Part shown: positions 1,908 to 22,098 of the stretch, piece by piece
Position numbering within the stretch: position 1 is the stretch's first letter
How the letters are laid out: each line of letters starts with the position of its first letter
UHGV virus genome: UHGV-0864147
Source of the DNA: a virus
Strand: one strand, 5' to 3'
Length of the DNA stretch: 39,187 bases
Notes under the pieces: model-generated
Seen by the model: only the letters and a program-made list of their open reading frames with translations
The model's database searches: none
What the model was told of the DNA's origin: nothing
Program-made: the position numbers and the translations under genes

Positions 1908-2536
1908 TGATTACCATCCTGACGTTCTTTGAGTCGCTTCCTGGCTGCCGCTATGCGATCAGCAATTGTCACATTCACATTAACATCCAGGCGCTCTTTG
2001 AACGCGTTAACGTCGACGTGCTTACCGATGAGCTCGAGGTTTTTCACCTTGTCGGGCCATTTCACCTTCTTCAGGATATGCTCGACATCCTCAACAGAGA
2101 GATCCGCCTCGCCATTCTCTTTTTGCAGAGAAGCCTGGGTCGTCTTGATGGTAGCGATATCCATAGCACTGAGAGAGGTACGCCAGACCTTCGGCCATTC
2201 AGCGATCGGCTTCATCCCGCCGTCATCGTTCAGGATATCCAGCACGTCCATCTGGTCGATTTCCACCAGGCGCAGCAGGACATAATCAGCACTGACGCGC
2301 AGGCGCTTGTTGCGCTCCTCCATCAGCTCGGCAATCCGTTTTTGAATGCGTTCATCGCGCATCATGACACTGGCTTTAACTGCCGCTGTATTTGGAGAGA
2401 ATCCTGCGTTAATCGCTGCCTGAGTCTGGTTTTCAGGCGTTTTGATGTATGACTGGCAATAAGCCTCCTGCATTGCTGTTAGTGGCTTAAATTGCGTTGA
2501 TTTGCGTTTATAGGTTTTAGGTTCAGCAGGCATCAT
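1904..2536 (-). CDS. terS: terminase small subunit
   Basis: Translation contains AINAGFSPNTAAVKAS typical of small terminase DNA-binding domain; track ORF starts at TTG 2614, ATG at 2534-2536 preferred (GGTGG upstream). Confidence 0.65.
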   Translation of the reverse strand: MMPAEPKTYKRKSTQFKPLTAMQEAYCQSYIKTPENQTQAAINAGFSPNTAAVKASVMMRDERIQKRIAELMEERNKRLRVSADYVLLRLVEIDQMDVLDILNDDGGMKPIAEWPKVWRTSLSAMDIATIKTTQASLQKENGEADLSVEDVEHILKKVKWPDKVKNLELIGKHVDVNAFKERLDVNVNVTIADRIAAARKRLKERQDGNQ

Positions 2537-2568
2537 AACCACCGTGGTAATAGTTACCGTTGTGGTAA
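2536..2568. promoter_or_regulatory. tandem TTACC-N5-GGTAA-type sites in terS leader
   Basis: Sites 2536-2550 (TAACC/GGTAA) and 2554-2568 (perfect). Confidence 0.4.
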
Positions 2569-2578
2569 TAGTACCATG

Positions 2579-2605
2579 CAAAATAAAGCCGCCATAGTTG
2601 GCGGC
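2579..2605 (-). terminator. intrinsic terminator-like hairpin upstream of terS
   Basis: GCCGCC AACTAT GGCGGC followed by TTTATTTTG on minus strand. Confidence 0.5.
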
Positions 2606-2646
2606 AGTATTCAAAACCCATCAAATTCATCATGCATAATCTACTC

Positions 2647-2658
2647 GTGACATGTCAC
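2647..2658. repeat. 12-bp perfect palindrome GTGACATGTCAC (copy 1)
   Basis: Identical to copy at 21599-21610; overlaps a minus-strand stop codon. Confidence 0.6.
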
Positions 2659-3002
2659 ACTATTAATTTCGTTTCATGCCAGCCTTTAGTCACCCAGCAT
2701 TGCGAGTCACCATTACACGGGCATGAATTAACTGGAACTCTCTCGCCGCACTTACCGCAACGTTTTCTGCTGATCGATTTTATACGCCCGCGCACACGTG
2801 CATCATCCTGGCGGATCAGCAGCGCGATGTACTCGGCCATTTCATAGGGATCGCGACCAGGGCGCCGGGCGGCGCAGTTCCGCGCCAGCATTTCCTGCTC
2901 CTGCTTATCCAGCACCAGTTCAATTTTGCGCTCACCGGCGGCGGACTGCCGAGCGCGCTGCGCGGCTTTGCGTTCTGCGGGGGATTTAGCCACGAATCGC
3001 AC
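2655..3002 (-). CDS. hypothetical Cys-rich protein (CGKCG...CPCNG zinc-ribbon-like C-terminus), candidate late-gene regulator
   Basis: 115 aa ORF directly upstream of terminator plus terS; GTG start overlapping stop of upstream small ORF. Confidence 0.4.
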   Translation of the reverse strand: MRFVAKSPAERKAAQRARQSAAGERKIELVLDKQEQEMLARNCAARRPGRDPYEMAEYIALLIRQDDARVRGRIKSISRKRCGKCGERVPVNSCPCNGDSQCWVTKGWHETKLIV

Positions 3003-3108
3003 TCCACGCCAGATTGATTAATGACTCCCAGGTAATATAAACCCGGATACCAGCAGCCAGGCCGAAACCAATCACCATGGCATAAAGCAGAGCGTTGCAC
3101 TTGTTCAT
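2986..3108 (-). CDS. small hydrophobic peptide (40 aa)
   Basis: Not in ORF track; ATG at 3106-3108 preceded by GGAGGTGAAG; translation MNKCNALLYAMVIGFGLAAGIRVYITWESLINLAWSAIRG. Confidence 0.3.
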   Translation of the reverse strand: MNKCNALLYAMVIGFGLAAGIRVYITWESLINLAWSAIRG

Positions 3109-3947
3109 CACTTCACCTCCTGCGGCGGTTCTGGTAGCGGCATCCAGTGAGTTACGTCATCCAAGATATTTCCTGATAAATACGTGAAAGCTCTATATTT
3201 TTTGTAATCAATTGGATTTACAACCCAGTTCCAATATGCGGCCACGATTTCACCTTGACTAAATGCCAGTAACATTTTGGTGTCTTCCGGCATTCGCTCA
3301 CTACAGCTTATCCAACCATCCGGAGTTACCGGATAGTTGCCATTCACAAGGTCAGCTCGAACATATAGTGTGTCATCATGGTGCTGATTGTGGCTGCACC
3401 ACGTTAATTCGCTTAACTCGCCATCTTCTGGCCATACTCCAGCTGTTTGCAGCCAGATATGGGCTGGCGCATCTTGGCAAGGTGTATTAACTGGCAACTT
3501 GTAAGTTTGGCTTACAGGTTCAGCACCATGAAGCATGGCGTCGCTCCGCTCTATGCCATCCAGCGCGATTCGCAGTGCCTGAATTGTGGTAGAGCTATCG
3601 TTTGGGGCTATTCCATATCGCTCGAATACAGCTAAATGGTTGCGCATAATCTCAGGCGTAAGCTCTTTGTAAGCATAAGCAAGAGGCTCTGATGCATTAT
3701 CCGGCACAACCGACGCAGGCGCGGCAGCATAAACAGGAATAACGTCCGCTTGCTCTTTATTGCTTTCATCCGTTAAAGCCCAGAATAATTTCCCGGCCGG
3801 ATGTTTGAAAATATAAGCAACTGGTTCTGCTTCCAGCGATGCCAGTGCAATTTCATAAGCACGGCGCTCAATATTGTCTCGAACGTCCAAGCTGCCTATG
3901 CGCTCTTTGATTTCTTTAATCAGTTCTTTGTCGGTAAAAGTGGTCAT
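3108..3947 (-). CDS. hypothetical protein with DUF551-like C-terminus (WMPLPEPP)
   Basis: ATG at 3945-3947 preceded by AAGGAG; track gives longer 3108..3989 version. Confidence 0.5.
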   Translation of the reverse strand: MTTFTDKELIKEIKERIGSLDVRDNIERRAYEIALASLEAEPVAYIFKHPAGKLFWALTDESNKEQADVIPVYAAAPASVVPDNASEPLAYAYKELTPEIMRNHLAVFERYGIAPNDSSTTIQALRIALDGIERSDAMLHGAEPVSQTYKLPVNTPCQDAPAHIWLQTAGVWPEDGELSELTWCSHNQHHDDTLYVRADLVNGNYPVTPDGWISCSERMPEDTKMLLAFSQGEIVAAYWNWVVNPIDYKKYRAFTYLSGNILDDVTHWMPLPEPPQEVK

Positions 3948-3948
3948 C

Positions 3949-4506
3949 TCACTCTCCTTTGATGCGAATGCCAGCGGCGCGGGAATCATTCCATCGCTTT
4001 ACTTCTTCACGAATTACGTCAATGCATTCTTTCGAATCCATTAGGTAATCTTCATCAAAAAGACGTTCCTGTTCGTTTTCTATCGCAACAATGATTGCTT
4101 CAACTAATTTTTGTGCCTGAGAATCACTTTCTAACTCTGCTATGCGCTTACTCCCATCCGAGATAACACCTTCGTAATACTCACGCTGCTCGTTAAGTTT
4201 TGATTTTGTCTCCTCAAGCTCTACACGCAGCTTCCCTACCGTTAGCGCAATATCCTCGTTCTCCTGGTCGCGGCGTTTGATGTATTGCTGGTTCCTTTCC
4301 CGTTCATCCAGTAGTGCCAGCACGGTTTCTGGTCCGGCCAGAAATTTGAAGGCGTTGAGCGCATCAATATCCACACCGTAATCTTTAAGTTCTTGTTCAC
4401 TTAACAAATCATCATCAACTGGCAACATTAACAGGCGTTCCATTGCCGGAATTGCACGCTCTGCCGCCTCACGCAGTGCCTGATAGTCAATTGTCATTCT
4501 CGCCAT
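3949..4506 (-). CDS. Ead/Ea22-like coiled-coil protein
   Basis: 185 aa, acidic coiled-coil, N-terminus MARMTIDYQALREAAE resembles Ead/Ea22 family of lambdoid phages (recalled, unverified). Confidence 0.45.
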   Translation of the reverse strand: MARMTIDYQALREAAERAIPAMERLLMLPVDDDLLSEQELKDYGVDIDALNAFKFLAGPETVLALLDERERNQQYIKRRDQENEDIALTVGKLRVELEETKSKLNEQREYYEGVISDGSKRIAELESDSQAQKLVEAIIVAIENEQERLFDEDYLMDSKECIDVIREEVKRWNDSRAAGIRIKGE

Positions 4507-5138
4507 CCTTCACAGTTGTAATCACTACAGCCTTCAAAATCATATGGGCTGTACTGCCAGGTTATTTTTCCGCAATGCGGACAATTCCAACGCACCTTCC
4601 CGCTTCGCGACTTCTTTCTTCTGTTCTGCTCTTTCAACCAGTCAGGCATGACCAAACCTGCGCCCTGAACCATTGTTCTGCGGTTAAAGTTATTGATATT
4701 GAACGTCAGACGCTTGGCTGCATCAGCAATGGAAAATGGCAACCAAACTATTCCTGGTTCGTTTTTGTTGGCGACGCTAAAGATGGTCGCTTTACTGAAG
4801 TCATCTGTTGGCAATCCACCGTTTTGAAGCCAGTAAACATCGTTGCCGTTCCAGCTACCTTTTTTGTAGGCCACATACGCAGTGCAATCTGACTCAATCA
4901 GGCTTTCTGTAGGGATGTACTGGCAATCAACGTGCCACACTGCCATTGCATCCACGCTATCAGCGCAAACAGGCTGATCGATATCTCGCCCACAATTCCA
5001 GGCTTTTTGGGCTTCTTCCAGCGTGTAAACATGAGCGCGATCGATATCAGAACTGTAACCATTACCGTTATGGCAATGGAATGAAGCGTTATTGCCCACA
5101 GTTTCACGCGAGCACATCATGTAAAAACGGTTAGTCAC
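4494..5138 (-). CDS. hypothetical Cys-rich protein
   Basis: 214 aa ORF in operon context; multiple Cys/His clusters (CPHCG, CEGW). Confidence 0.45.
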   Translation of the reverse strand: MTNRFYMMCSRETVGNNASFHCHNGNGYSSDIDRAHVYTLEEAQKAWNCGRDIDQPVCADSVDAMAVWHVDCQYIPTESLIESDCTAYVAYKKGSWNGNDVYWLQNGGLPTDDFSKATIFSVANKNEPGIVWLPFSIADAAKRLTFNINNFNRRTMVQGAGLVMPDWLKEQNRRKKSRSGKVRWNCPHCGKITWQYSPYDFEGCSDYNCEGWRE

Positions 5139-5602
5139 TGGTTGCCTCCTTTACGAAGCTGGGCGACGAACTCGTTAAGTGATATGTAGCAATCTCCAAA
5201 TGTTAACGAACCGCTCGACCGCATATGCTCCATAGCCATATCCACGCCCTGCGCCCGTACTTCAGCCAGGAAAGCGTCGGTGGCTGGGGTGTCAACACGG
5301 ATGCTGTCGCGCAAGATGAAAAATGCATTGAGCATTCCAGTCTCTGGCACTTCATCCTGATGCTTCTCATACGCATCAAGAGCCTTCATCATCTCATGTC
5401 CGAATGGTTGAGGGTGCGCAGACTTCAGCCCCGCACTCTCCGCTGCCAGCGCATTAGCACGCACCAGTTGCACTTCCAGTTGCGTTGCCAAATCGCTGAG
5501 CAGCTTTGCCACACTACGCATATCAACGGCACCACATTCAGCTTTCAGTTCCGAAGCCATCTCATGCCCGGCGGAAACTAACCCTTTGATATTACTTTCC
5601 AT
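5135..5602 (-). CDS. hypothetical protein
   Basis: 155 aa ORF, 4-bp overlap with downstream gene. Confidence 0.45.
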   Translation of the reverse strand: MESNIKGLVSAGHEMASELKAECGAVDMRSVAKLLSDLATQLEVQLVRANALAAESAGLKSAHPQPFGHEMMKALDAYEKHQDEVPETGMLNAFFILRDSIRVDTPATDAFLAEVRAQGVDMAMEHMRSSGSLTFGDCYISLNEFVAQLRKGGNQ

Positions 5603-9062: not shown

Positions 9063-9083
9063 AATCATATTTTTCAGTAAGTA

Positions 9084-9108
9084 AGCCGCCTTCTGGCGGC
9101 TTTTTTAT
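9084..9108 (+). terminator. intrinsic terminator after repressor gene
   Basis: AGCCGCC TTCT GGCGGCT followed by TTTTTTATT. Confidence 0.75.
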
Positions 9109-9119
9109 TGTCTACACAA

Positions 9120-9196
9120 TTACCTTAAGGGTAATTTTTTTAACTCATATCTATTGACACCAAACCAAATACGCATAATCATTACCTCAACGGTAA
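9120..9196. promoter_or_regulatory. OL-like operator pair (9120-9134 and 9182-9196) flanking a TTGACA -35 element (9154-9159)
   Basis: Two perfect TTACC-N5-GGTAA sites; -35 consensus hexamer; -10 assignment uncertain. Confidence 0.5.
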
Positions 9197-9370: not shown

Positions 9371-9670
9371 ATGAACGTTAATCAGCAGAAAAATCTTCAA
9401 AAAATCATGCTGGCATTCGACAAGGACTACCGCCTGTCAGAACAGCTATATGACCGACAAGTCGAACTGATTGAGAGTATCCGGCTTCATCAACTGGCCT
9501 CAACTTTTGACGTTGTAACAGGCAAAGGCGTTCGTCAGGAAGTGCTGGAGGCCGCTAAAGACAGCCCTGAGTTCGAAGAACTAATGGATGCCTACCGGCG
9601 AGAGGCAATGGCAATTATCGCCCGCTGGGATCTGGCGGATCAGCTTGATGGACAGAAGGACGCGGCATGA
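9371..9670 (+). CDS. hypothetical protein
   Basis: ATG at 9371 (MNVNQQ...); ATGA overlap with exonuclease start. Confidence 0.45.
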   Translation: MNVNQQKNLQKIMLAFDKDYRLSEQLYDRQVELIESIRLHQLASTFDVVTGKGVRQEVLEAAKDSPEFEELMDAYRREAMAIIARWDLADQLDGQKDAA

Positions 9671-10488
9671 AACCGGGAATTTATTTCGGCATCAGCAACG
9701 AAGACTACCACGCCGGTGACGGCGTGAGTAAGTCGCAACTTGACATGGTTGCCAAGAATCCGGCGCTTCTTAAATGGGTTCAGGCAGCACCAGAAGACGA
9801 AGAGAAAAAGTCTGAACTGGATATGGGAACCGCATTGCACTGTCTGCTTCTGGAACCTGGAGAATTCGACAAACGCTTCATCGTTTCACCGAAATTCGAT
9901 CGTCGGACAAAACAAGGTAAAGCTGACGAAGAAGCATTTCTTCGTGATGTGGCGGATATGGGTATTACGGTACTTGATGTCGAGCAGTGGCGAAAACTGG
10001 AGCTGATGCGTGATAGCACAATGGCTCACCCGGCTGCACGCTGGATGTTGGAAGCACCTGGTTACTGCGAAGCGTCAATGTACTGGAACGATGAAGAGAC
10101 GGGTGAGTTGTGCCGAATTCGTCCAGACAAATGGCTGAACGAGCACAACGTGATCGTCGACGTGAAAAAGGTTGCAGATATGGACCGTTTTGCACGCCAC
10201 ATCGAGGAATTCCGCTACCACGTGCAGGACGCAATGTACCGCGAAGGCGCAATGAGGGTTACTGGTCAGCCGCATGGTTTTTTCTTTCTTGCCGTGAGCG
10301 AAAGCATTGATTGTGGTCGGTATCCGGTACGCGTGTTCGAGCTGGATGCGCAGGATGTCGATGCCGGGCACGCTCTGTTCCGCCGGGATCTGAATACCTA
10401 TCACGAATGCCGCATCAATGATGAATGGGGCGGTGTGGAAATCATTAAACGCCCTGAGTGGGCACGCAAACAGGATATGTACATATGA
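9667..10488 (+). CDS. exonuclease (PD-(D/E)XK family, RecE/YqaJ-like)
   Basis: 273 aa with acidic/lysine catalytic-like motifs (DVKK), translationally coupled to RecT. Confidence 0.7.
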   Translation: MKPGIYFGISNEDYHAGDGVSKSQLDMVAKNPALLKWVQAAPEDEEKKSELDMGTALHCLLLEPGEFDKRFIVSPKFDRRTKQGKADEEAFLRDVADMGITVLDVEQWRKLELMRDSTMAHPAARWMLEAPGYCEASMYWNDEETGELCRIRPDKWLNEHNVIVDVKKVADMDRFARHIEEFRYHVQDAMYREGAMRVTGQPHGFFFLAVSESIDCGRYPVRVFELDAQDVDAGHALFRRDLNTYHECRINDEWGGVEIIKRPEWARKQDMYI

Positions 10489-11426
10489 GCAACGACATCG
10501 CAAACATCAACGCACCAGTAGACACAGCAATCGCTGGAACTGCTGCAACTATTTTCAGCCCAGACGGCTTGAACCAACTGATGAAATTCGCCGAGGTAAT
10601 GGCGCAAAGCCGCGTAACGGTACCGGCGCACCTCGCCGGGAAACCAGCTGATTGCATGGCCGTGGCAATGCAGGCTGCGCAGTGGGGAATGAACCCGTTT
10701 GCCGTGGCTCAGAAAACCCATGTTGTGAACGGCACGCTAGGTTATGAAGCCCAATTAGTAAACGCAGTTATCTCAACGATGTCGCCAACAAAAGATCGCA
10801 TCAACTACGAGTGGTTCGGGCCGTGGGAACGCGTGATCGGTAAGTTTGTTGAGAAAACATCCAAAAACGGCAATCCATATATTGCACCAGGCTGGACTCT
10901 AAAAGACGAAGAAGGCTGCGGTGTTCGCGTATGGGCAACCATGAAGGGCGAGGATCAACCTCGAGTGCTTGAGTTAATGCTATCTCAAGCACAGGTAAGA
11001 AACTCCACACTTTGGGCCAGTGATCCGAAACAACAACTCGCATACCTTGCGACAAAACGCTGGTCTCGCTTGCACTGTCCTGACGTAATCATGGGCGTCT
11101 ACACACCAGACGAATTACAGGAAACGGCACCGCGCGTTGAGCGAGACATTACTCCGCAAACGACCACTGCTGCGGGAATGAACAGTCTGATCAACGCTAA
11201 ACAAGTGAAAAAGCCTGATGAGCAAACGCGTAAAGCGGATAGCCGTGATCCAGAAGAAATGCTGATGGCCTTTACCAGCGCAGCGATGAATTACAGCACT
11301 GTCTCCGAACTGGATAAAGCTTACAAATACATTGCACAAAAACTTTCAGATGATGACGAACTGCTGGCAAAAGCCACCGACGTTTACAGCGTTCGTCGGG
11401 AAGAATTAAACGAAACATCTATGTAA
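10485..11426 (+). CDS. recT: RecT-family single-strand annealing protein
   Basis: Start at ATG overlapping exonuclease stop; sequence resembles RecT family. Confidence 0.8.
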   Translation: MSNDIANINAPVDTAIAGTAATIFSPDGLNQLMKFAEVMAQSRVTVPAHLAGKPADCMAVAMQAAQWGMNPFAVAQKTHVVNGTLGYEAQLVNAVISTMSPTKDRINYEWFGPWERVIGKFVEKTSKNGNPYIAPGWTLKDEEGCGVRVWATMKGEDQPRVLELMLSQAQVRNSTLWASDPKQQLAYLATKRWSRLHCPDVIMGVYTPDELQETAPRVERDITPQTTTAAGMNSLINAKQVKKPDEQTRKADSRDPEEMLMAFTSAAMNYSTVSELDKAYKYIAQKLSDDDELLAKATDVYSVRREELNETSM

Positions 11427-11833: not shown

Positions 11834-12133
11834 GTGAGAAAGTTAAGCCGACTTGAAAAATATCACATGAACAAGGTTTCAATGCGCAGTCCGTCAAAGA
11901 TTGTCGCCGTTACTCCTGCGGCGATAGAGTTCGAAAAACGCGCAATTGAAAGAGAGAAAAAAGGACAGTTCCGCATTGCCGCTCACCTTTGGCTTAAGTG
12001 TATGGATGTTGCTTCTGGTGATGTTGAGCGTGCAAGGATCGCGGTTCGCAGGGACCAATGTATCACAAAAGGTAACGGCCTTCGCCGTGGCGACTATAGC
12101 GGCATAGGATGTTGCGGGGTGGTTTATGACTAA
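11834..12133 (+). CDS. hypothetical small regulator (PerC/ANR-like motif, tentative)
   Basis: 99 aa; motif RAIEREKKGQFRIAAHLWLKCM; start codon uncertain (GTG at 11834 or later ATG). Confidence 0.3.
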   Translation: MRKLSRLEKYHMNKVSMRSPSKIVAVTPAAIEFEKRAIEREKKGQFRIAAHLWLKCMDVASGDVERARIAVRRDQCITKGNGLRRGDYSGIGCCGVVYD

Positions 12134-12776
12134 GAAATACACGCTAATCTATGCAGATCCACCCTGGGTATACCGGGACAAAGCCGCAGATGGTAATCGC
12201 GGTGCCGGTTTTAAATATCCGGTTATGAGTGTGCTGGATATCTGCCGCCTTCCTGTGTGGGATTTGGCCGATGAAAACTGTCTGTTGGCCATGTGGTGGG
12301 TGCCAACACAACCACTCGAAGCACTAAAAGTTGTTGAAGCCTGGGGATTCCGTCTGATGACCATGAAGGGTTTCACGTGGATAAAATGTGGTAGTCGACA
12401 ACCAGATAAACTGGTTATGGGTATGGGACACATGACTCGCGCCAATAGTGAAGATTGCCTGTTTGCGGTAAAGGGAAAATTACCTACGCGCATTAATGCA
12501 GGGATCGTTCAGTCATTTACCGCACCGCGGCTTGAACATTCAAGAAAACCAGATGTCGTTCGTGAAAAACTTGTGCAATTGTTAGGCGATGTTTCTCGCA
12601 TTGAACTGTTCGCCCGCCAGTCGTCTCATGGCTTCGATGTTTGGGGTAATCAGTGCGAAGACCCGGCAGTGCAACTACATCCTGGATACGCGTTGGATAT
12701 TGGCGGATTAACAAATGCATTCAGCAATGCTCCGCTGTCACCAACAGACAACCAGGGGCGGGAGCGTGCAGCATGA
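12126..12776 (+). CDS. MT-A70 family N6-adenine DNA methyltransferase
   Basis: DPPW catalytic motif near N-terminus (LIYADPPWVY). Confidence 0.8.
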   Translation: MTKKYTLIYADPPWVYRDKAADGNRGAGFKYPVMSVLDICRLPVWDLADENCLLAMWWVPTQPLEALKVVEAWGFRLMTMKGFTWIKCGSRQPDKLVMGMGHMTRANSEDCLFAVKGKLPTRINAGIVQSFTAPRLEHSRKPDVVREKLVQLLGDVSRIELFARQSSHGFDVWGNQCEDPAVQLHPGYALDIGGLTNAFSNAPLSPTDNQGRERAA

Positions 12777-12967
12777 ACAGGGCATCACCAGCAGATTTAA
12801 GGAAATGCCTTGAAACTGCAAACATGCTTGCACACAGCGGGATCAGGTTTGTTCCAGTTCCAGCTGTCACTGATGCTGAATTTGCAACACTGTCAGCAAT
12901 ATTCGCAGATAAAATTGAATCACTGGCAGCAGAAGCCGAGATGGAAGAAAATCAGCAGAATAATTAA
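12773..12967 (+). CDS. hypothetical small protein (64 aa)
   Basis: ATGA overlap with methyltransferase stop; converges on integrase with 3-bp gap. Confidence 0.35.
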   Translation: MNRASPADLRKCLETANMLAHSGIRFVPVPAVTDAEFATLSAIFADKIESLAAEAEMEENQQNN

Positions 12968-12970
12968 ACG

Positions 12971-14221
12971 TTATTCCCCCGCCATCCACTTCTCAAACTT
13001 CGACGGGGAGAACGGAATCAGATCCGTATGCTCCCCGTTAATCCAGGAATCAATCATATCGGCCCACTGCTGCAACATGTAGGCGCGCTGTCTGGCGTAT
13101 TCCGCTTTGTTATATACGGCGCGCACACCTTTCTGCTCATGTGCCAGAGCCTTTTCAATCCAGTCTGAAGGATAACCAGCCTCATGCAACAACGTACTGG
13201 CTGTACGGCGCATATCGTGTACGGTGAAGCCCTGAATATGCTCACCATCTTCATTTATTATTTTCACCGTTCTGTCGATCAGAGAGTTCAGCGCGGCATT
13301 AGATAATGGCTTCCGGAAATTGTAACGACCAGGAACCAGATATTCACTTCCACCAGCGCACATCTGCAACCCAACCAATATATCCTGTGCCTGTTTAGGC
13401 AGGTAAATAACGTGCGCCCGGCTTCCCTTCATGCGGTCTGAAGGAATTGTCCATGTCCATTTTTTAAAATCTATTTCATCCCACGTTGCATTGGTGAATT
13501 CGCCTTTACGAACCATAGTGATAAGCACCAGCTTTAAAGCCATTTTCATAGTGCCCATAGCACCAATGGCATCCAGCGTGCGGAAGAACAGGCCAATTTC
13601 TTCTGGTGTCAGTGTTCGCTCTCGTGGTTTAAATATGGCGATAGACGAAGGTTTAATGTCAGCCGCAGGATTAAACAAACCATGACCACGGTCATTGGCG
13701 TGACGGTATACGCTGCTGATGATCTCCCTGGCCTGTACTGCTGTTGCCCGACCACCGCGTTCGACAATCCGGTCACACAAATCACGAACCATCGATGTGG
13801 TAATTTCAGCCATCATTTTGTTGCCAAGAACCGGAAGTATGTCACGGTCGATCACCGCCTGCTTCATTGCGCGGGTACTGTCAGCCAGGATGACGTGTTT
13901 CATATAACTGTCGGTATGTACCGCAAACGTCTCGGCACCACGAATCTTTTTGATACCGTCACGTTTAGCCGCAGCCGGTGACTGGCCTGCTTTAAGCAGC
14001 TTCTTTGCAGCAATCAGTTCTTCTCGCGCTTCTGCCAGGCTGATACCGTCACGCCCATACTGCCCGATTACCAGTGTTTCGCGGCGACCGTTGATACGGT
14101 AGTCATAGCGAAACGAGACCGTGCCTGACGTAAGCACAGCTACATACAGCCCGTCACGGTCGGAGACCTTGTACAGTTTGTCCTGCGGCTTGAGGTTTTT
14201 TAATTTTGTATCGGTAAGCAC
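12971..14221 (-). CDS. int: tyrosine integrase
   Basis: 416 aa; conserved C-terminal tyrosine-recombinase residues (R...HDMRRT...Y) recognisable; GTG start. Confidence 0.85.
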   Translation of the reverse strand: MLTDTKLKNLKPQDKLYKVSDRDGLYVAVLTSGTVSFRYDYRINGRRETLVIGQYGRDGISLAEAREELIAAKKLLKAGQSPAAAKRDGIKKIRGAETFAVHTDSYMKHVILADSTRAMKQAVIDRDILPVLGNKMMAEITTSMVRDLCDRIVERGGRATAVQAREIISSVYRHANDRGHGLFNPAADIKPSSIAIFKPRERTLTPEEIGLFFRTLDAIGAMGTMKMALKLVLITMVRKGEFTNATWDEIDFKKWTWTIPSDRMKGSRAHVIYLPKQAQDILVGLQMCAGGSEYLVPGRYNFRKPLSNAALNSLIDRTVKIINEDGEHIQGFTVHDMRRTASTLLHEAGYPSDWIEKALAHEQKGVRAVYNKAEYARQRAYMLQQWADMIDSWINGEHTDLIPFSPSKFEKWMAGE

Positions 14222-15937: not shown

Positions 15938-16328
15938 CGTCTTTTCTCCCCGGAATTAACTCGCGTGGATTATCGGAACGGTGATAGAGCCAGATACCAA
16001 TTCGCACTGCGACAATTGCTGATACGAATGCGCCAGCAGAGAAAACAATCCCTTTCTCGAACGAGTCCTGCGTGATGGTAGGGATCAGGCTGGCTATGCC
16101 GATAAGAATTGATGCTGCTGGTTTGTAAAAAAGAAGGCCGCAGAGAAAGCTGAGCATCGACAAGAATACGCGACGACGAATTGGATACTCTACCGCAGAG
16201 GTAACAAAAATTACCGCACCAGCAAGAGCACCGAGCGCCACCTCTGGCGGAACACCTACGATAACCGCAGCAAGAGAGCTCACACTAAGCCATTGATTTA
16301 AAGACTCAGTTGTTATGTTAACCGACAT
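15924..16328 (-). CDS. holin-like membrane protein
   Basis: About 134 aa, multiple TM segments; overlaps downstream membrane protein gene. Confidence 0.45.
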   Translation of the reverse strand: MSVNITTESLNQWLSVSSLAAVIVGVPPEVALGALAGAVIFVTSAVEYPIRRRVFLSMLSFLCGLLFYKPAASILIGIASLIPTITQDSFEKGIVFSAGAFVSAIVAVRIGIWLYHRSDNPRELIPGRKDDGNA

Positions 16329-16503
16329 AGCACACACCATTTTTTTTGTACATATCGAACCTCTTCACTTACAGGTCACCAAACACAATAAACCATATAT
16401 GTTTAACCATCAGATATTCTGAAATAACTATCAATTCATTGGTTTTTGATGACAATATTCATAAACAACCATAAATGTAAGGATGTTTATTAGTTGCCAA
16501 AAT

Positions 16504-19110
16504 TTATTTCCTGCAAACTCCAGATGATGTTAATCCATCAAAAATAACCTGCACTCTGGCAATAACAACATCAACTCCAGAAGTCGTTTCACTTGCATAA
16601 CCAAGTTTTATTTTAGATACAATATCCTGAGTAAGTTCAGATATTTCAGTTTCTGCAATGTTACCAGAGGCCATGTGATTATCGTATGCCATAGAATGAA
16701 TTCCATTATTGACATCGATTGAACTAGTATGTTTGTGAAAAATAGATGGGTTTACCTGAAACGAATTTGAACCGATAAGATCAGAAGATACTCCATTCAT
16801 CACTGCAGTACAGCGTGGAATATTATTATCGGTTATTGTCATATGCAGACGGTTACCAGTTAACCCCTCACCAAGTGTGACATAATACGCCAATTCTCCA
16901 CCTGCATATTGTTTCCCCTCAACAATAACAGTAATCCCTCTTAATTTCTGATTAGCTAGCAAAAACTTATTACTGTCTATATAGCATTTATTTGCGGAAC
17001 CAAAAACAGCCCCTTCTAAAATATCTGATGAATAGGAATAAATAAGGTCACCTGAAACAAAGGAAAGAATATCAGATACGTTTCCTTTTTTAGATAAGTT
17101 GGGAGAATAGCTATTAACTATTTCATATTGTCCTGTGATAAAATCAAGGTAAACGCCATCAGTTTTCATCTCTTTAAAGAAAATGCTATTAAAGCATCCA
17201 TCAAGAACCGGTGGATATATTCTAGAGCTTGCATAAGCTGTTGGGTGATTCTTATTATTACCACTACCAGGCGAATAAACATCTTCGTTAGTCATTGACT
17301 TTTTAAGCTTAACAGGAATCATCGGCTGCATATCAATTTTGCAGTTCCCTGAACCACCGATGCGAGGATAAAATAAACCACCAAACCTTACAATATTACT
17401 ACTGAATAGTATTTCGTTATCGTTAAGTGTTATCTCAACGAAGTTTCCAATAAGTTTAAATTCAACTGAAAACAAACCAAGTGGAGCAGATAATTTAACA
17501 ATATTGCGCATAAAAACACCTACAGTCCCTGTTGATGCAGTATAGTGTGTGGTTTCAAAGGCAGAGCCTGTATATTTCAAGTTAATGAAATTATTATGGT
17601 ATGAAGACAATTGGAATTGAATCCCAGAACTAAGGATTTCAATATCTACAAATTGAATCCTTACGGAGTAAGAATATGATAAATCTTCATATTCATAAGG
17701 CAATGTAACATCTTTTGAAATAGTTGCCCTCACATAATTACCAGAAACCACATCAACCCCATCACGTACTGCATTAAAGTAACGATTAAAATCAATAAGC
17801 CCAGCGCCAACATACTGCGCATATGAACGAGTCCATCCTGCCATTGCGTTTCGTCCATTCTGAGCTTCTAAACTGCTAAATTCAGAGTCACTTGTGGTAC
17901 TTGATGGGAGGATATTTGTACAAAAAACAATTTCAGGCATTGAAGTAATATCATTCAGTTCAGCCATCAATTTAAAAAAAGTTTTCTGCGGGAAGTTACC
18001 AACATCCCAACCATCTCCGTCATTCATGCCAAAAGCAATAATAACAACATCAGGGTTAATATCACGAATGTAATCAATCCAGCGTCTGTTCGTGTCTGAA
18101 TACCATGGGTACTGTGAGTTATAAGAAGTAATTGCTGGTGTATCTTTTCCAAGGTCATAGTACCTCATTCCACCAATTGCTCTGTTAAATAAAGTAGAAC
18201 TTGGGAATTTCTCTTGCAAAACTCTCTTAAGATGAGCGGCAAAAATGCTTGATCGATCCACTGTGCTTATATTATATGGGGCACTTAAGCTGTCACCAAC
18301 TAACACTATTTTTGAGTTAGGCCTTGATAATCTCTCAAGTGTTTTAGATGTGACTAAACTGCAGGAATTAATGAACTGAGTACTATTTAGCGTCTGTTCA
18401 AGTGTATCACCAAATCTGGTACCAACGTATGATGATCCGTTGACACTTGCTAGCTTAAGGCATAAATCAGCAGTATCTGTAATTGAAAAAATAGGAACAG
18501 GACGTCCTAAACTGTCATACCCCTGAATTGAGTTTGCCCTAGAAGATGCTGATGCCATTTCGCTTACTATCTCAGGGAAGCGGAGTGTTTTAGATATGTT
18601 GCTGTTAATAACTCCTTTGATAGATGAGTCTGTATATTTCTTCGTGGAAGCGTCCTGAGGAAATAATGGATCATCAAGGTTACGAATACGATTGCCGAGT
18701 GCATCGTAGTAAGTGGCACTAAATGATGGTTTACGAAGAGCCAGCCGAGCCATGCTTTTGACTAACTGGATCAGCATCGTTAGCTTATCAAAAGCATCCT
18801 CATGCACTTCCGCAAAGAACTTACCCTGATTGCGCAGATCAGTTTCCTGTGTAACCGGTAGCTCTCGTGATATAGAAATCTTATAGCCATTGGCCAACGC
18901 CTTCGACAATATTACATTTCCACCATTGTATCCTCCGGCCCCGGTAACTATATAATCAGTATCAAGAGTCAGTACGGTGATATTTTCATGAATATCAACA
19001 ACCTGCACAATCAAATCAGATTTATTGAAAACCCTAAAGGCATACGGAAACGATGTCGTAACGCCGTTACCGGTGTATTCGTTGTGGTCAACTTCGGTTG
19101 AGACCGTCAT
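16504..19110 (-). CDS. tailspike: T7 gp17-like N-terminal adaptor domain plus SGNH/GDSL hydrolase domain
   Basis: 868 aa; N-terminus YTGNGVTTSFPY pattern; internal VLVGDSLSA (block I) and FGMNDG (block III) SGNH motifs; AT-rich. Confidence 0.75.
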   Translation of the reverse strand: MTVSTEVDHNEYTGNGVTTSFPYAFRVFNKSDLIVQVVDIHENITVLTLDTDYIVTGAGGYNGGNVILSKALANGYKISISRELPVTQETDLRNQGKFFAEVHEDAFDKLTMLIQLVKSMARLALRKPSFSATYYDALGNRIRNLDDPLFPQDASTKKYTDSSIKGVINSNISKTLRFPEIVSEMASASSRANSIQGYDSLGRPVPIFSITDTADLCLKLASVNGSSYVGTRFGDTLEQTLNSTQFINSCSLVTSKTLERLSRPNSKIVLVGDSLSAPYNISTVDRSSIFAAHLKRVLQEKFPSSTLFNRAIGGMRYYDLGKDTPAITSYNSQYPWYSDTNRRWIDYIRDINPDVVIIAFGMNDGDGWDVGNFPQKTFFKLMAELNDITSMPEIVFCTNILPSSTTSDSEFSSLEAQNGRNAMAGWTRSYAQYVGAGLIDFNRYFNAVRDGVDVVSGNYVRATISKDVTLPYEYEDLSYSYSVRIQFVDIEILSSGIQFQLSSYHNNFINLKYTGSAFETTHYTASTGTVGVFMRNIVKLSAPLGLFSVEFKLIGNFVEITLNDNEILFSSNIVRFGGLFYPRIGGSGNCKIDMQPMIPVKLKKSMTNEDVYSPGSGNNKNHPTAYASSRIYPPVLDGCFNSIFFKEMKTDGVYLDFITGQYEIVNSYSPNLSKKGNVSDILSFVSGDLIYSYSSDILEGAVFGSANKCYIDSNKFLLANQKLRGITVIVEGKQYAGGELAYYVTLGEGLTGNRLHMTITDNNIPRCTAVMNGVSSDLIGSNSFQVNPSIFHKHTSSIDVNNGIHSMAYDNHMASGNIAETEISELTQDIVSKIKLGYASETTSGVDVVIARVQVIFDGLTSSGVCRK

Positions 19111-19214
19111 GTTAAATCTCCAGATAGTCGCAGCACCCGTTGCGCCGCATATCTGGTTATTCTATTACCTGAAAAACCATATATGTATAGAAAGACTATA
19201 AATACCAATAGATA

Positions 19215-19229
19215 TTACCTTTATGGTAA
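19215..19229. promoter_or_regulatory. TTACC-N5-GGTAA site upstream of LexA box
   Basis: Perfect arms; 38 bp upstream of LexA box. Confidence 0.45.
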
Positions 19230-19266
19230 TTTGCAAAACGTGCTGGATAGCAAACAAATTATTTGA

Positions 19267-19286
19267 TACTGTATAAATATACAGTT
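19267..19286 (+). promoter_or_regulatory. LexA (SOS) box
   Basis: TACTGTATAAATATACAGTT, i.e. CTGT-N8-ACAG with AT-rich spacer, 2 mismatches to the 20-mer consensus; 20 bp upstream of ATG 19306. Confidence 0.7.
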
Positions 19287-19305
19287 ATTGCATGGAGAAG
19301 ATAAG

Positions 19306-19563
19306 ATGCAGCGGTATCACTATCCACTGGAAGACGGATTTACCGAAAGGATTCACACGCCGGGAGGCGTCAGGTCACTGGTGGAGGGATCGCACTTGAT
19401 GAAATTACTCCGGGATCTCGATAAGGATGGATTTAATGTCGATGGCCCACTTGCCGAACTGACTGCACTGATTAACTACGTCACCAGCTCACAGATGTCT
19501 ATGCGGGATCTGCAAACACATCTCGACTATTGTGCCGAACAATTACGAAAACAAACCAGATAA
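19306..19563 (+). CDS. small protein paralogous to antirepressor C-terminal domain; LexA-regulated
   Basis: ATG 19306 with GGAG upstream; about 45 percent identity to Ant C-terminus by eye; LexA box upstream. Confidence 0.5.
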   Translation: MQRYHYPLEDGFTERIHTPGGVRSLVEGSHLMKLLRDLDKDGFNVDGPLAELTALINYVTSSQMSMRDLQTHLDYCAEQLRKQTR

Positions 19564-19566
19564 GGT

Positions 19567-19609
19567 TTGCAATTACCAAGTGGAGTGCTTATATTTACCT
19601 TTGAGGTAA
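19567..19609 (+). promoter_or_regulatory. promoter-like element (-35 TTGCAA, -10 TATATT) with TTACC-N5-GGTAA site 19595-19609
   Basis: 17-bp spacer; perfect operator-like repeat overlapping -10/+1. Confidence 0.4.
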
Positions 19610-19877
19610 ATTTACATCGCACTCCTCTTGTGCCATAGTAATCGGGCACTGGCAAAATCCAGTGCCGGGATTGGTCTCCCGGATTACTACAGAGGCACAT
19701 ATGCCGCATAAGCGGTTTTTTTTATGTGTAAAGCGCACCTATTCTATGGTGGGCTGTGTGGGGGCACCGAAAGGTGCGCCGGGTTCCTTTGTAGCCGGTA
19801 AGACCAACTCTGCACAGTTCACCACCATCTGATTGGTCTCAGCGGTGGTGATTAACCTAACTACAAAGGTGATCGCC
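19610..19877 (+). ncRNA. structured leader / candidate regulatory RNA upstream of ant
   Basis: Hairpins at 19646-19665, 19665-19682, 19704-19715 plus U8, 19764-19777 (GAAA loop), 19819-19851; CCTTTGTAG (19786-19794) complementary to ant SD region (19861-19869). Confidence 0.3.
19704..19723 (+). terminator. weak terminator/attenuator in ant leader
   Basis: CCGC ATAA GCGG followed by eight T. Confidence 0.35.
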
Positions 19878-20570
19878 ATGAATACCAAACCTTCCATCTT
19901 TTCCTTTGAGTCATCCTGCCAGATCCGTATGTTCATGATTGACGGAGAACCTTGGTTTGTCACCAAAGATGTGTGCAATGCTTTGAATATTGATGTTACA
20001 CAAGCGAGAAAACTTGATAAAAAAGGCTGGAACAAAAAGGGGCTGTATTCAATACAGACCCCTGGTGGAATACAAGAACTATCCATCGTTTCAGAATCAG
20101 GTCTCTACATCCTTATTCTGCGTTGCAAAGAGGCAATGACTGAGGGAACGAGAGCATTCAGATTTCTTGAATGGGTTACAGGCGAGGTTCTTCCTCAGAT
20201 CCGCCGCACCGGAAGTTACATTAAAAACTCGCTACCGCAGGAAGAACGCATAAAGATGGTTGCCGACCAGGTAGCCAACGCCACGGCGTCAGCAGTAATG
20301 CAGGCGATGAAGATAGAGAACAAAACCTACAACGCCCCGCTGAAGCCCGGCTACCGCAGCCTGATTCATTCCCCGTCTGGTGTTCTCGGCCTGACGGAGA
20401 ACTCACTGCTGATGAATCTGCTGAACCAGTTACAGGAAGACGGGCACGACGTATCGGGCGCGGCGGCGGAGCTGACCACCATGTTCTGCTACATCGTCGG
20501 TGTGAGCAAATGCCTGCGTGATATCCAGACGCACGCGGAGTACATCAACGACAAGGCTGGGTTCTTCTGA
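19878..20570 (+). CDS. ant: antirepressor (Bro-N N-terminal domain)
   Basis: FSFESSCQIRMFMIDGEPWFVTKDVCNALNI and GLYILILRC / VLPQIRRTGSY Bro-N signatures. Confidence 0.8.
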   Translation: MNTKPSIFSFESSCQIRMFMIDGEPWFVTKDVCNALNIDVTQARKLDKKGWNKKGLYSIQTPGGIQELSIVSESGLYILILRCKEAMTEGTRAFRFLEWVTGEVLPQIRRTGSYIKNSLPQEERIKMVADQVANATASAVMQAMKIENKTYNAPLKPGYRSLIHSPSGVLGLTENSLLMNLLNQLQEDGHDVSGAAAELTTMFCYIVGVSKCLRDIQTHAEYINDKAGFF

Positions 20571-20635
20571 CGGGCGGCGGCACAGGGATGTGCCTTTAAA
20601 TAATTCTGTACAGATTGCAGGTGAATAGCTTACTA

Positions 20636-20650
20636 TTACCTCACGGGTGA
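20636..20650. promoter_or_regulatory. TTACC-N5-GGTGA site upstream of moron
   Basis: 9/10 arm match. Confidence 0.35.
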
Positions 20651-20739
20651 TCCATAGCGATTAGGCACCGATACAGGAGGAGCCCACATGAGAAAATTTG
20701 ACGAGTACGAAGGCGTTTAACATTCGGATAGTTTAATGA

Positions 20740-20761
20740 CGGGGCCATTAGGCCCCGTTTT
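20740..20761 (+). terminator. terminator/attenuator after 10-codon mini-ORF
   Basis: CGGGGCC ATTA GGCCCCG followed by TTTT. Confidence 0.5.
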
Positions 20762-20779
20762 CATGTCTGGAGACAGTTT

Positions 20780-21319
20780 GTGTTAAGTGAAGAAATGCAA
20801 TTTGCCATGGCTGTGGCTCAAATCGTAAGTGCAGTCGCGGTTTCGCTTGGCTTGTTCATAGCTATCGCTACTATTATTTATAATGTAAATACAGCGAGAA
20901 AAGTACACACTTCAGTATTCCTTGGTGAAAGCAGGTTTGATGTAGATTATAAGAAAGGCCTATCTACTATGCGCCGCATTCACGAATCGAACAAATCATT
21001 CCGCTCTTATATGTATCCAAGCAATGGGCAGGCTGATCTTACGGATGAAGAAAAGACAGAGAAGAGAGAAATAATTTACTGTCTAGGTTTCTACGAACGC
21101 ATGGCTGTGAGCGTGAAGCGGAAAACTTATGATGAGACCATGATTAAGGAAGTATTTTACAGCTCCGTTGTAAATAACTATCAGATTGCGCTACCTCTTA
21201 TACAAGCCATTAGAGAAAAAGAAAACATAAACACATATTTTAAAGAATATGAATGGTTGGCCACACGATGGAAGGATTGCCCATTGAAGGATAAATCCCC
21301 GTGGTACAAGTTTTGGTAA
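20780..21319 (+). CDS. AT-rich moron: single-pass membrane protein of unknown function
   Basis: 179 aa; N-terminal TM helix; own promoter-like region and terminators on both sides. Confidence 0.5.
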   Translation: MLSEEMQFAMAVAQIVSAVAVSLGLFIAIATIIYNVNTARKVHTSVFLGESRFDVDYKKGLSTMRRIHESNKSFRSYMYPSNGQADLTDEEKTEKREIIYCLGFYERMAVSVKRKTYDETMIKEVFYSSVVNNYQIALPLIQAIREKENINTYFKEYEWLATRWKDCPLKDKSPWYKFW

Positions 21320-21413
21320 GCCAGCGCTGCGGGCTTTTTTTGTGGACGAAACAAAAGTCAGTGATACACTCATTGACGCCACATTGAGGTGGCTTATAGA
21401 TGGAAATTTCACA

Positions 21414-21575
21414 ATGAAAAAAGCATTTGCTGCACTGTTCGTTTTGTTGTCTCTGGTAGCTTCAACTCAGGCTTTTGCCGGTCGTTGTCAGCACGACAGC
21501 GATACTGCCGCTGACGGCTCCCGCTGCGGTGGGCGTTCTGCGGATTCCCGCCCGGGTGGCGGTGGCATTCGTTAA
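21414..21575 (+). CDS. small secreted peptide (signal peptide MKKAFAALFVLLSLVASTQAFA)
   Basis: 53 aa from ATG 21414; classic signal peptide; Gly/Asp-rich mature region. Confidence 0.35.
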   Translation: MKKAFAALFVLLSLVASTQAFAGRCQHDSDTAADGSRCGGRSADSRPGGGGIR

Positions 21576-21580
21576 AAACA

Positions 21581-21598
21581 AGGCCGCGAAAGCGGCCT
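21581..21598 (-). terminator. terminator after small membrane protein gene
   Basis: AGGCCGC GAAA GCGGCCT; U-tract on minus strand. Confidence 0.5.
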
Positions 21599-21610
21599 GT
21601 GACATGTCAC
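21599..21610. repeat. 12-bp perfect palindrome GTGACATGTCAC (copy 2)
   Basis: Identical to copy at 2647-2658; overlaps a minus-strand stop codon and abuts terminator hairpin. Confidence 0.6.
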
Positions 21611-21903
21611 GTCCCTTTTCTGAATGATAGCCATTCGAAAAATGATGACATTCCACCGCAGACAACAGCAAAGATGATCCCACCAAAGAAGAGAATGCCA
21701 GCCTGCCACCACTCCCACCGCCATACATCCACAGCGCCAACCATACCAACAATCGCTCCAACAAATGGAATATAGCTCACGATGAAAGCAATGGGGGCTG
21801 CAATTATCCAGTGCAATCCCCACCATGATTCAAGCCCAGCCATAATTGCTGCCAACTGAAAAAGACCAACGACGATATAAACAATGAATCCTATAGCTTG
21901 CAT
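21607..21903 (-). CDS. small integral membrane protein
   Basis: 98 aa, 3 hydrophobic segments, AGGTGG upstream of ATG. Confidence 0.45.
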   Translation of the reverse strand: MQAIGFIVYIVVGLFQLAAIMAGLESWWGLHWIIAAPIAFIVSYIPFVGAIVGMVGAVDVWRWEWWQAGILFFGGIIFAVVCGGMSSFFEWLSFRKGT

Positions 21904-21915
21904 GTAGCCACCTAT

Positions 21916-22089
21916 TTACCCAGTAAAAATCAGAGGCCTCCCCTCAATAAGGCTTGCAACAAGAACTATTCCCTGCACAACAAAGATGAACCAGCAAATA
22001 GCTTGAGTCTGAGGGTTAAGAAAATATTTGTAGCGGTCAATAAATAACAACCCACCAAAAATTATCACACTCAAAATAATTAAAAACAC
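21916..22089 (-). CDS. small membrane peptide (57 aa, GTG start)
   Basis: Not in track; AAGGAAG before GTG; hydrophobic translation FLIILSVIIFGGLLF... Confidence 0.3.
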   Translation of the reverse strand: MFLIILSVIIFGGLLFIDRYKYFLNPQTQAICWFIFVVQGIVLVASLIEGRPLIFTG

Positions 22090-22098
22090 AACACTTCC

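Follow-up and report, generated by a model that had tools for sequence, protein, structure and literature searches.

UHGV virus genome UHGV-0864147 (39,187 nucleotides (nt), the whole stretch being referred to here as the window) has, beside its integrase gene, two overlapping open reading frames (ORFs), one for an MT-A70-type adenine methyltransferase and the next for a 64-amino acid (aa) protein of the DUF1382 family. The stop/start junction at which they meet is retained in phages of this type whichever gene follows it, and the slot between methyltransferase and integrase is a cassette site in which DUF1382 is one cargo. The gene pair as such is already known, being annotated as PhiV10p33 and PhiV10p32 in phage phiV10. 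The substrate of the methyltransferase is a matter for weighing, with DNA the somewhat favoured candidate.

A fixed junction with interchangeable cargo

As read from the sequence, the methyltransferase ORF is at 12126-12776 on the plus strand (216 aa, protein start MTKKYTLIYADPPW), and the DUF1382 ORF, recognized from its matches to Pfam PF07131 and PDB 8DSB, is at 12773-12967 on the same strand, with its TAA stop at 12965-12967. They share the ATGA at 12773-12776 (plus strand), where the ATG begins at 12773 and the methyltransferase TGA occupies 12774-12776. A Shine-Dalgarno-like element, GGGAG, is 8 nt 5′ of the DUF1382 ATG, within methyltransferase coding sequence. At the other end, the DUF1382 stop is separated by a 3-bp gap (12968-12970) from the stop codon, at 12971-12973, of the converging gene for a P4-type tyrosine integrase (12971-14221, minus strand, 416 aa; Pfam Arm-DNA-bind_3, Phage_int_M and Phage_integrase). 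The initial annotation had drawn this layout, and each of its coordinates proved correct, with both the overlap at ATGA and the 3-bp spacing from the integrase being real and conserved.

Conservation was assessed in 82 phiV10-like genomes, i.e. the window, phiV10 itself and 80 IMG/VR prophages, with methyltransferases at least 98% identical. The junction sequence ...GGGCGGGAGCGTGCAGCATGA... is the same in 81 of them, and the odd one (L070) has two substitutions that leave GGGAG and ATGA intact, so that these two elements are kept in 82 of 82, irrespective of the gene that follows. The arrangement is conserved and not due to chance. Of the genes that start from the junction ATG, 56 are DUF1382 (one of these truncated) and 20 encode a 219-aa calcineurin-like (Metallophos) Ser/Thr phosphatase, while the remaining 6 genomes have an 82-aa ORF with an AntA antirepressor gene after it. 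Homology between the window and the genomes with other cargo is lost at 12778-12780 and regained at 12971-12982, where the integrase stop is, the slot thus corresponding to 12778-12982 in the window and to 3648-4307 and 3648-4908 in the other-cargo genomes L008 and L005, respectively. Tyrion and epsilon15 have yet other small genes there. It is this swapping of cargo at an unchanged junction that marks the slot as a cassette site, with DUF1382 as one of its possible occupants.

From a translational perspective, the overlap makes it probable that decoding of DUF1382 is coupled to that of the methyltransferase; GGGAG, at its distance of 8 nt, could alternatively permit independent initiation. 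The initial description of the 64-aa ORF as ‘translationally coupled’ is in keeping with retention of the stop/start overlap in all 82 genomes but needs qualification, in that the junction belongs to the slot and in 26 of the 82 is used by other cargo. The ATGA is a docking point at which accessory genes are interchanged, so that the methyltransferase and DUF1382 are neighbors and not an obligate pair.

Family, fold and tail of the methyltransferase

Sequence and modelled fold place the 216-aa protein in the MT-A70 family, as a beta-class N6-adenine methyltransferase. The Pfam profile MT-A70 (PF05063) is matched in its entirety (1-172 of 172; E 3e-22, with 79.8 bits where the cut-off is 23.9). 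There is also a match to PHROG 359, ‘DNA methyltransferase’ (E 4e-120), and the protein's best PADLOC match is MTase_II (PDLC03262, E 2e-77); there is no NCBIfam model for it or for the DUF1382 protein. The nearest solved relatives by sequence are Tetrahymena MTA1 (7f4r, E 3e-13) and human METTL3 (E 5e-6). An AlphaFold2 (AF2) model (predicted local distance difference test (pLDDT) 71, predicted template modelling score (pTM) 0.69) has 5k7w_A (E 4e-13) and 9u9e_A (E 5e-13), of METTL3/MTA1 type, as its top Foldseek matches, with a template modelling (TM) score of ~0.6, and its confidence is low in loops 18-29 and 95-105 and in the C-terminal 29 residues. YADPPW constitutes residues 9-14, with the DPPW of catalytic motif IV (residues 11-14, codons at 12156-12167, plus strand) being near the N-terminus, as predicted by the permuted beta-class order. 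P12 and W14 do not vary across 31 homologues, and D11 and P13 hardly do. The full-domain Pfam match, the relatives in PDB and the Foldseek result bear out the MT-A70/DPPW identity proposed initially.

The protein comprises its catalytic domain, a C-terminal tail of ~29 aa and little else. The tail, delimited by alignment with relatives, is approximately residues 188-216 (12687-12776, plus strand, ...PGYALDIGGLTNAFSNAPLSPTDNQGRERAA, with GGGAG within). Its AF2 pLDDT is 45-58 with short helices, and among phiV10-like genomes it is less constrained than the core. Both the epsilon15-type P0007 and Tyrion have conserved this tail, whereas most of the relatives of ~195 aa are without it; on alignment, it is unrelated to the tail that the enzyme of Shiga toxin (Stx) 2a phages has after about residue 187.

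The catalytic fold and DPPW are in common with METTL3-METTL14, which forms N6-methyladenosine (m6A) in RNA, and with the Tetrahymena MTA1 complex, which forms N6-methyladenine (6mA) in DNA. However, those enzymes function only as hetero-oligomers, together with a paralogue that is inactive and with accessory subunits for binding, whereas the phage encodes no paralogue, and identity to either is only 20-25%. Hia5/Hin1523 were considered as MT-A70 relatives, which would have implied non-specific adenine methylation, but were rejected as such since the pertinent paper shows them to be Dam-related, with DPPY. They, M.EcoGII and phage Dam are of different sequence families from the window enzyme, and any analogy is functional only. 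In that functional regard, all are prophage-encoded methyltransferases that have no restriction enzyme and are thought to be protective of phage DNA (PMC3299994, PMC7544214). M.EcoGIX was also dropped as a relative, being plasmid-borne, single-strand-specific and from another context.

The DUF1382 protein

For the 64-aa protein, presented initially as a small ORF, homology searching gives a clear answer. It matches Pfam DUF1382 (PF07131) over positions 1-60 of 60 (E 2e-30, 105.2 bits against a cut-off of 27), PHROG 292 and, with E 8.5e-13 and the GIRFVP(I/V)P strand included, the nuclear magnetic resonance structure of lambda Orf63 (PDB 8DSB), and is 46-48% identical to gp04 of Stx2a phages. 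These matches identify it as a homologue of lambda Orf63 and the orthologue of PhiV10p32. Lambda Orf63, at 63 aa in comparison to 64, belongs to the same Pfam family over its full length and is ~43% identical in an alignment judged by eye. Lambda orf63, like the window gene, is in the early-left operon, between recombination genes and int/xis, but its neighbors are orf60a and orf61 (DUF1317), whereas the window gene adjoins the methyltransferase.

Orf63 is an intertwined dimer, encoded in the exo-xis region, that favors lytic over lysogenic development, with this pro-lytic action being known in both lambda and the Stx phage Phi24B (PMC10869804). It did not bind the one double-stranded DNA oligonucleotide tried, and its hydrophobic cleft binds an amphipathic helix (PMC10869804). 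Dimer fold and pro-lytic phenotype are those of the lambda and Phi24B proteins.

DNA or 16S rRNA as substrate

The methyltransferase of Stx2a phages (PA28 gp05, PA8 gp5) is ~83% identical in aa to the window enzyme over residues 1-187. A mutagenesis primer in the work of Gong, Chakraborty and Koudelka (NAR 2023, PMC10810198) matches the PA28/PA8 gene exactly, which equates this homologue with the M.EcoPA8orf6770P of that study. There, M.EcoPA8orf6770P alone had weak, non-specific activity, including on unmethylated GATC DNA; it co-purified with PNB-2, the product of the gene upstream, and the complex of the two had a >13-fold preference for RNA over DNA, with 16S ribosomal RNA (rRNA) and 30S subunits preferred (PMC10810198). 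The phiPA8 methyltransferase gene raised both spontaneous prophage induction and virulence, and the phenotype was abolished by mutation of DPPW to APPA (PMC10810198). M.EcoGV, highly similar to the phiPA8 enzyme, methylates GATC DNA when over-produced, according to the same paper, and a REBASE table derived from PacBio data gives GATC as the specificity of M.EcoGV homologues on Stx2 prophages (PMC6602927).

Of the features that characterize the rRNA holoenzyme, the window has the catalytic core, but the gene for PNB-2 and the Stx-type tail of ~27 aa are both absent. A DNA target appears to be the somewhat better supported of the two since, though the core is shared, it is the two defining features that are lacking. 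No PNB-2 homologue was found in the window; where Stx2a phages have PNB-2 upstream of the methyltransferase, the window has a PerC-like gene, and identity between PerC-like and PNB-2-type proteins is only 19-29%, i.e. at noise level. In Stx2a phages, as in the window, the methyltransferase is followed by DUF1382 and a converging integrase gene is nearby at the prophage end, but the methyltransferase-DUF1382 overlap is 41 nt instead of 4 nt, and extra genes (DUF1627, helix-turn-helix (HTH)) are between DUF1382 and the integrase, with none there in the window. The strong match to the PADLOC type-II model is also consistent with membership of a cluster of DNA methyltransferases.

In the mechanism proposed, the methyltransferase would be made when the operon is transcribed, presumably during infection or on induction, and would most likely methylate adenines in replicating phage (and host) DNA, with the target, by analogy with M.EcoGV, probably being GATC or another short motif. 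Such methylation would keep progeny DNA fully modified, a role that could be self-protective or epigenetic. The DUF1382 protein would be co-expressed and, as a dimer of lambda-Orf63 type, would be expected to act via a protein partner, as with its pro-lytic counterparts in lambda and Stx phages.

Several considerations weigh against DNA as the target. GATC is neither specially depleted nor enriched in the window (147 observed versus ~196 expected, a ratio of 0.75), and analysis of 4-mer palindromes there gave no informative signal. In E. coli, methylation of GATC would in part duplicate that by the host's own Dam. The solved MT-A70 relatives are all hetero-oligomers, and an enzyme of 216 aa acting by itself, without an obvious domain for target recognition, may need a partner. 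The assignment of GATC to M.EcoGV rests on secondary sources (PMC10810198, PMC6602927), and the activity of the purified phiPA8 enzyme alone on DNA was only weak and non-specific, with 16S rRNA and 30S subunits preferred when it was complexed with PNB-2 (PMC10810198). The ‘anti-restriction or epigenetic’ function attributed initially to the window enzyme accordingly stays plausible while being challenged by the rRNA methylation work on a homologue of such high identity.

The alternative that follows from that work is that the enzyme mainly methylates 16S rRNA in the 30S subunit, so tuning translation and through it the frequency of prophage induction, either with a different partner, e.g. the PerC-like protein, or with none. 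This is unlikely, though of the alternatives to DNA methylation considered here it has the most weight. In addition to the extent of identity to the phiPA8/PA28 enzyme and the RNA preference of the phiPA8 holoenzyme, the closest solved structures include an RNA enzyme, METTL3. The PerC-like gene and that of the methyltransferase overlap by 8 nt at the start of the latter, and a PerC::methyltransferase fusion (P0003) is in the database, but on a single contig such that it may be an assembly or frameshift artefact. Tyrion, whose methyltransferase has the same tail as that of the window, has a winged-HTH gene directly upstream in the manner of PNB-2; its PerC gene, however, does not adjoin the methyltransferase. 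Tail type and the presence of an upstream PerC gene co-vary in 80 of 84 cases, but this link is confounded by the genomes being near-clonal, and short-tailed enzymes are also found beside PerC. The window's PerC-like protein is unrelated to PNB-2, and the tail that Gong et al. proposed as the dock for PNB-2 is replaced in the window by one unrelated to it. The published claim itself derives from assays of S-adenosylmethionine consumption, with the modified base not being mapped there (PMC10810198).

Partners or neighbors

A functional explanation for the adjacency of the two genes would be that the methyltransferase and the DUF1382 dimer are partners, with the dimer binding, for instance, the methyltransferase tail to control activity or targeting, and with translational coupling setting their stoichiometry. 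This has to be regarded as improbable. In its favor, the order methyltransferase then DUF1382, with overlapping frames, is present in two unrelated lineages, Uetakevirus and the Stx2a Sepvirinae, but the methyltransferase tails of the two are unrelated though their DUF1382 proteins are 46-48% identical. The amphipathic helix-binding cleft of Orf63 (PMC10869804) and the short helices predicted, with low confidence, in the methyltransferase tail are also pertinent.

The distribution of the genes points the other way. Among phiV10-like genomes, the 26 of 82 that have another gene in the slot have methyltransferases at least 98% identical. A first scan of viral contigs yielded near-identical phiV10-like prophages only, and it was a second, with a ~70% identical relative, that gave diversity. 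In none of the 80 loci with such ~70% identical methyltransferases is DUF1382 directly downstream; in 3 of them (L135, L137 and L153) it is directly upstream, adjoining the methyltransferase with a 4-nt overlap, which is to be counted on the side of partnership. DUF1382 is in 372 phage records, mostly without this methyltransferase, those of lambda, 933W/Sakai-type and Stx1 phages included. Cargo swapping, the ~70% identity loci and the occurrence of DUF1382 elsewhere together argue against an obligate partnership.

The constructs used for phiPA8 are relevant in this context. Mapping of the published primers on the phiPA8 sequence (KP682374.1, L166) puts the p-M.EcoPA8F2 ‘holoenzyme’ plasmid at 2056-3282, which spans gp6 (PNB-2), gp5 (the methyltransferase) and the whole of gp4 (DUF1382), and the F1 construct at 1634-4015, from gp7 to gp3. 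The paper describes the F1 and F2 constructs as having gp6 and gp5 (and gp7) only (PMC10810198). With gp4 on the constructs, a contribution of the ~8-kDa DUF1382 protein was never excluded, and its share was not separated out. Cross-linking with phiPA8 indicated a 1:1 methyltransferase:PNB-2 species (PMC10810198), which is a point against a DUF1382 partner. That an Orf63-type dimer regulates or targets an MT-A70 enzyme, be its substrate RNA (16S rRNA) or DNA, is slightly more doubtful still than partnership as such. If such joint action were true, lambda Orf63 would gain a long-sought class of partner, and the ‘two-subunit’ phiPA8 holoenzyme may have held, or depended on, an unnoticed third protein.

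An orphan methyltransferase under purifying selection

No restriction-enzyme-like gene is present in the phiV10 annotation, and none was detected by Pfam and PADLOC scans of the ORFs of the window that are not in phiV10. In this sense, of there being no nuclease partner within the set so covered, the designation of the methyltransferase as an ‘orphan’ is well founded. (Among the ORFs of the nin-like region, two on the minus strand, at 4494-5138 (214 aa) and 5135-5602 (155 aa), matched nothing in Pfam or PADLOC.) Polymorphism among phiV10-like genomes comprises 64 synonymous versus 35 non-synonymous changes in the methyltransferase and 16 versus 7 in DUF1382, and this synonymous excess indicates purifying selection on both genes.

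These results bear on whether the methyltransferase could instead be the modification half of a restriction-modification system or a decaying, non-functional remnant. That its best PADLOC match is a type-II methyltransferase model would suit the former, and the natural occurrence of an in-frame deletion of the methyltransferase (P0128) the latter. However, the lack of an endonuclease partner, within the scope just given, counts against a restriction-modification system, and a remnant is at odds with the intact catalytic motif, the full-length Pfam domain, the synonymous excess and the presence of the gene in ~535 of 5426 complete E. coli genomes. Neither has more than a very slight claim.

Operon context

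The early-left (recombination/excision) operon ends with the methyltransferase and DUF1382 genes. Its plus-strand gene order is PD-(D/E)XK exonuclease, RecT, AlpA/Xis-like, a 38-aa membrane protein, PerC-like, methyltransferase and DUF1382. A sigma-70-like promoter at 9154-9182 comes after the terminator (9083-9102) of a repressor-like gene, and downstream of this promoter no plus-strand terminator-like site was found until 13987. Early-left transcripts would continue into the integrase gene in antisense. Both of the facing stop codons are covered by a small AT-rich palindrome at 12958-12976, a GC-rich inverted repeat, ACGGGGAG...CTCCCCGT, is at 13003-13038 within the 3′ end of the integrase gene, and folding of 12900-13060 is better than that of shuffled controls (z -3.5). 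In the absence of intergenic space, the inverted repeat or fold could pause or process the converging transcripts. In the annotation of epsilon15, RNase III sites are assigned around the integrase gene.

The exonuclease (PDDEXK, DUF3799) and RecT are encoded by two ORFs with a 31-nt overlap (window 9667-11426), where RefSeq has a single fused RecE/RecT coding sequence of 1761 bp for phiV10. The PerC-family gene (11834-12133, plus strand, 99 aa; Pfam PF06069 E 4e-7, PHROG 868 E 3e-61) is the one whose stop overlaps the methyltransferase start. The upstream neighbor is highly variable in this methyltransferase clade, with NinB, DUF1367, DndB-like, PerC and others being found, and in nearly all cases it adjoins the methyltransferase, the overlap being 1 or 4 nt. 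A 367-aa DndB-like protein (PF14072) replaces PerC directly upstream, with a 4-nt overlap, in four loci; in three (L055, L062 and L079) the methyltransferase is ~99% identical to that of the window, and in the fourth (L133, from the second scan) it is a more distant relative. The same pairing of DndB-like protein and methyltransferase is in the annotation of Salmonella phage SPC32N.

In Enterobacter phage Tyrion (L165, 2230-2633) PerC is separated from the tail-bearing methyltransferase by a DUF1317 gene and a gene for a 75-aa winged-HTH protein. This last protein is similar to PNB-2 in its type and location, with identity being only ~25%. Gene fusions have also been found at the locus. In P0128 the N-terminus of PerC is fused in-frame to DUF1382, with the whole methyltransferase deleted, while P0003 and P0001 are PerC::methyltransferase fusions; each is on only 1-3 contigs, and some may be assembly artefacts.

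The source phage and prevalence of the locus

The window is the complete genome of a phiV10/epsilon15-like temperate podophage (Uetakevirus), reversed and permuted with respect to NC_007804. Collinearity with phiV10 extends over most of it, with departures in the tail-spike/oac region and in a part of the nin-like region. RefSeq (NC_007804.2) has PhiV10p33 as a DNA methyltransferase, PhiV10p32 as a DUF1382 family protein and PhiV10p31 as the integrase, with gene order, 4-nt overlap and converging integrase the same as in the window; a 1.7-kb region is 98.4% identical at the nt level, with only point differences at the locus. At 95% identity or above, this 1.7-kb region is present in about 10% of complete E. 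coli genomes (the ~535 of 5426 referred to above), in which the PGAP names of the products are ‘MT-A70 family methyltransferase’ and ‘DUF1382 family protein’.

Not collinear with phiV10 is window 16315-22100. Encoded there are a tail-spike-like protein of 868 aa that includes a GDSL esterase domain (16504-19110) and proteins of Bro-N (19833-20570) and DUF4760 (20780-21319) type. Nothing in 16315-22100 aligned as a counterpart of the tail fibre/O-acetyltransferase segment of phiV10, which suggests a receptor specificity different from that of phiV10. From a compositional perspective, CTAG is strongly under-represented in the window, with 9 observed versus ~31 expected, and GATC, at the counts given above, mildly so.

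Significance

As a sequence feature, the pair adds little, since it is already annotated in phiV10 and is in approximately one in ten complete E. coli genomes. Of use to the field as side results are a cassette site with a constant junction and the presence of an Orf63-like gene on the phiPA8 holoenzyme construct. The wider interest is in whether prophage MT-A70 enzymes, which enterobacterial prophages very commonly have, are DNA methylases, which is the view of REBASE and of annotation, or rRNA methylases that tune induction, as put forward in one 2023 study. In this regard the phiV10-type enzyme, having the catalytic core of the Stx-phage enzyme with a different tail and no PNB-2, is a clean test case, and comparison of the two would show what determines the substrate.

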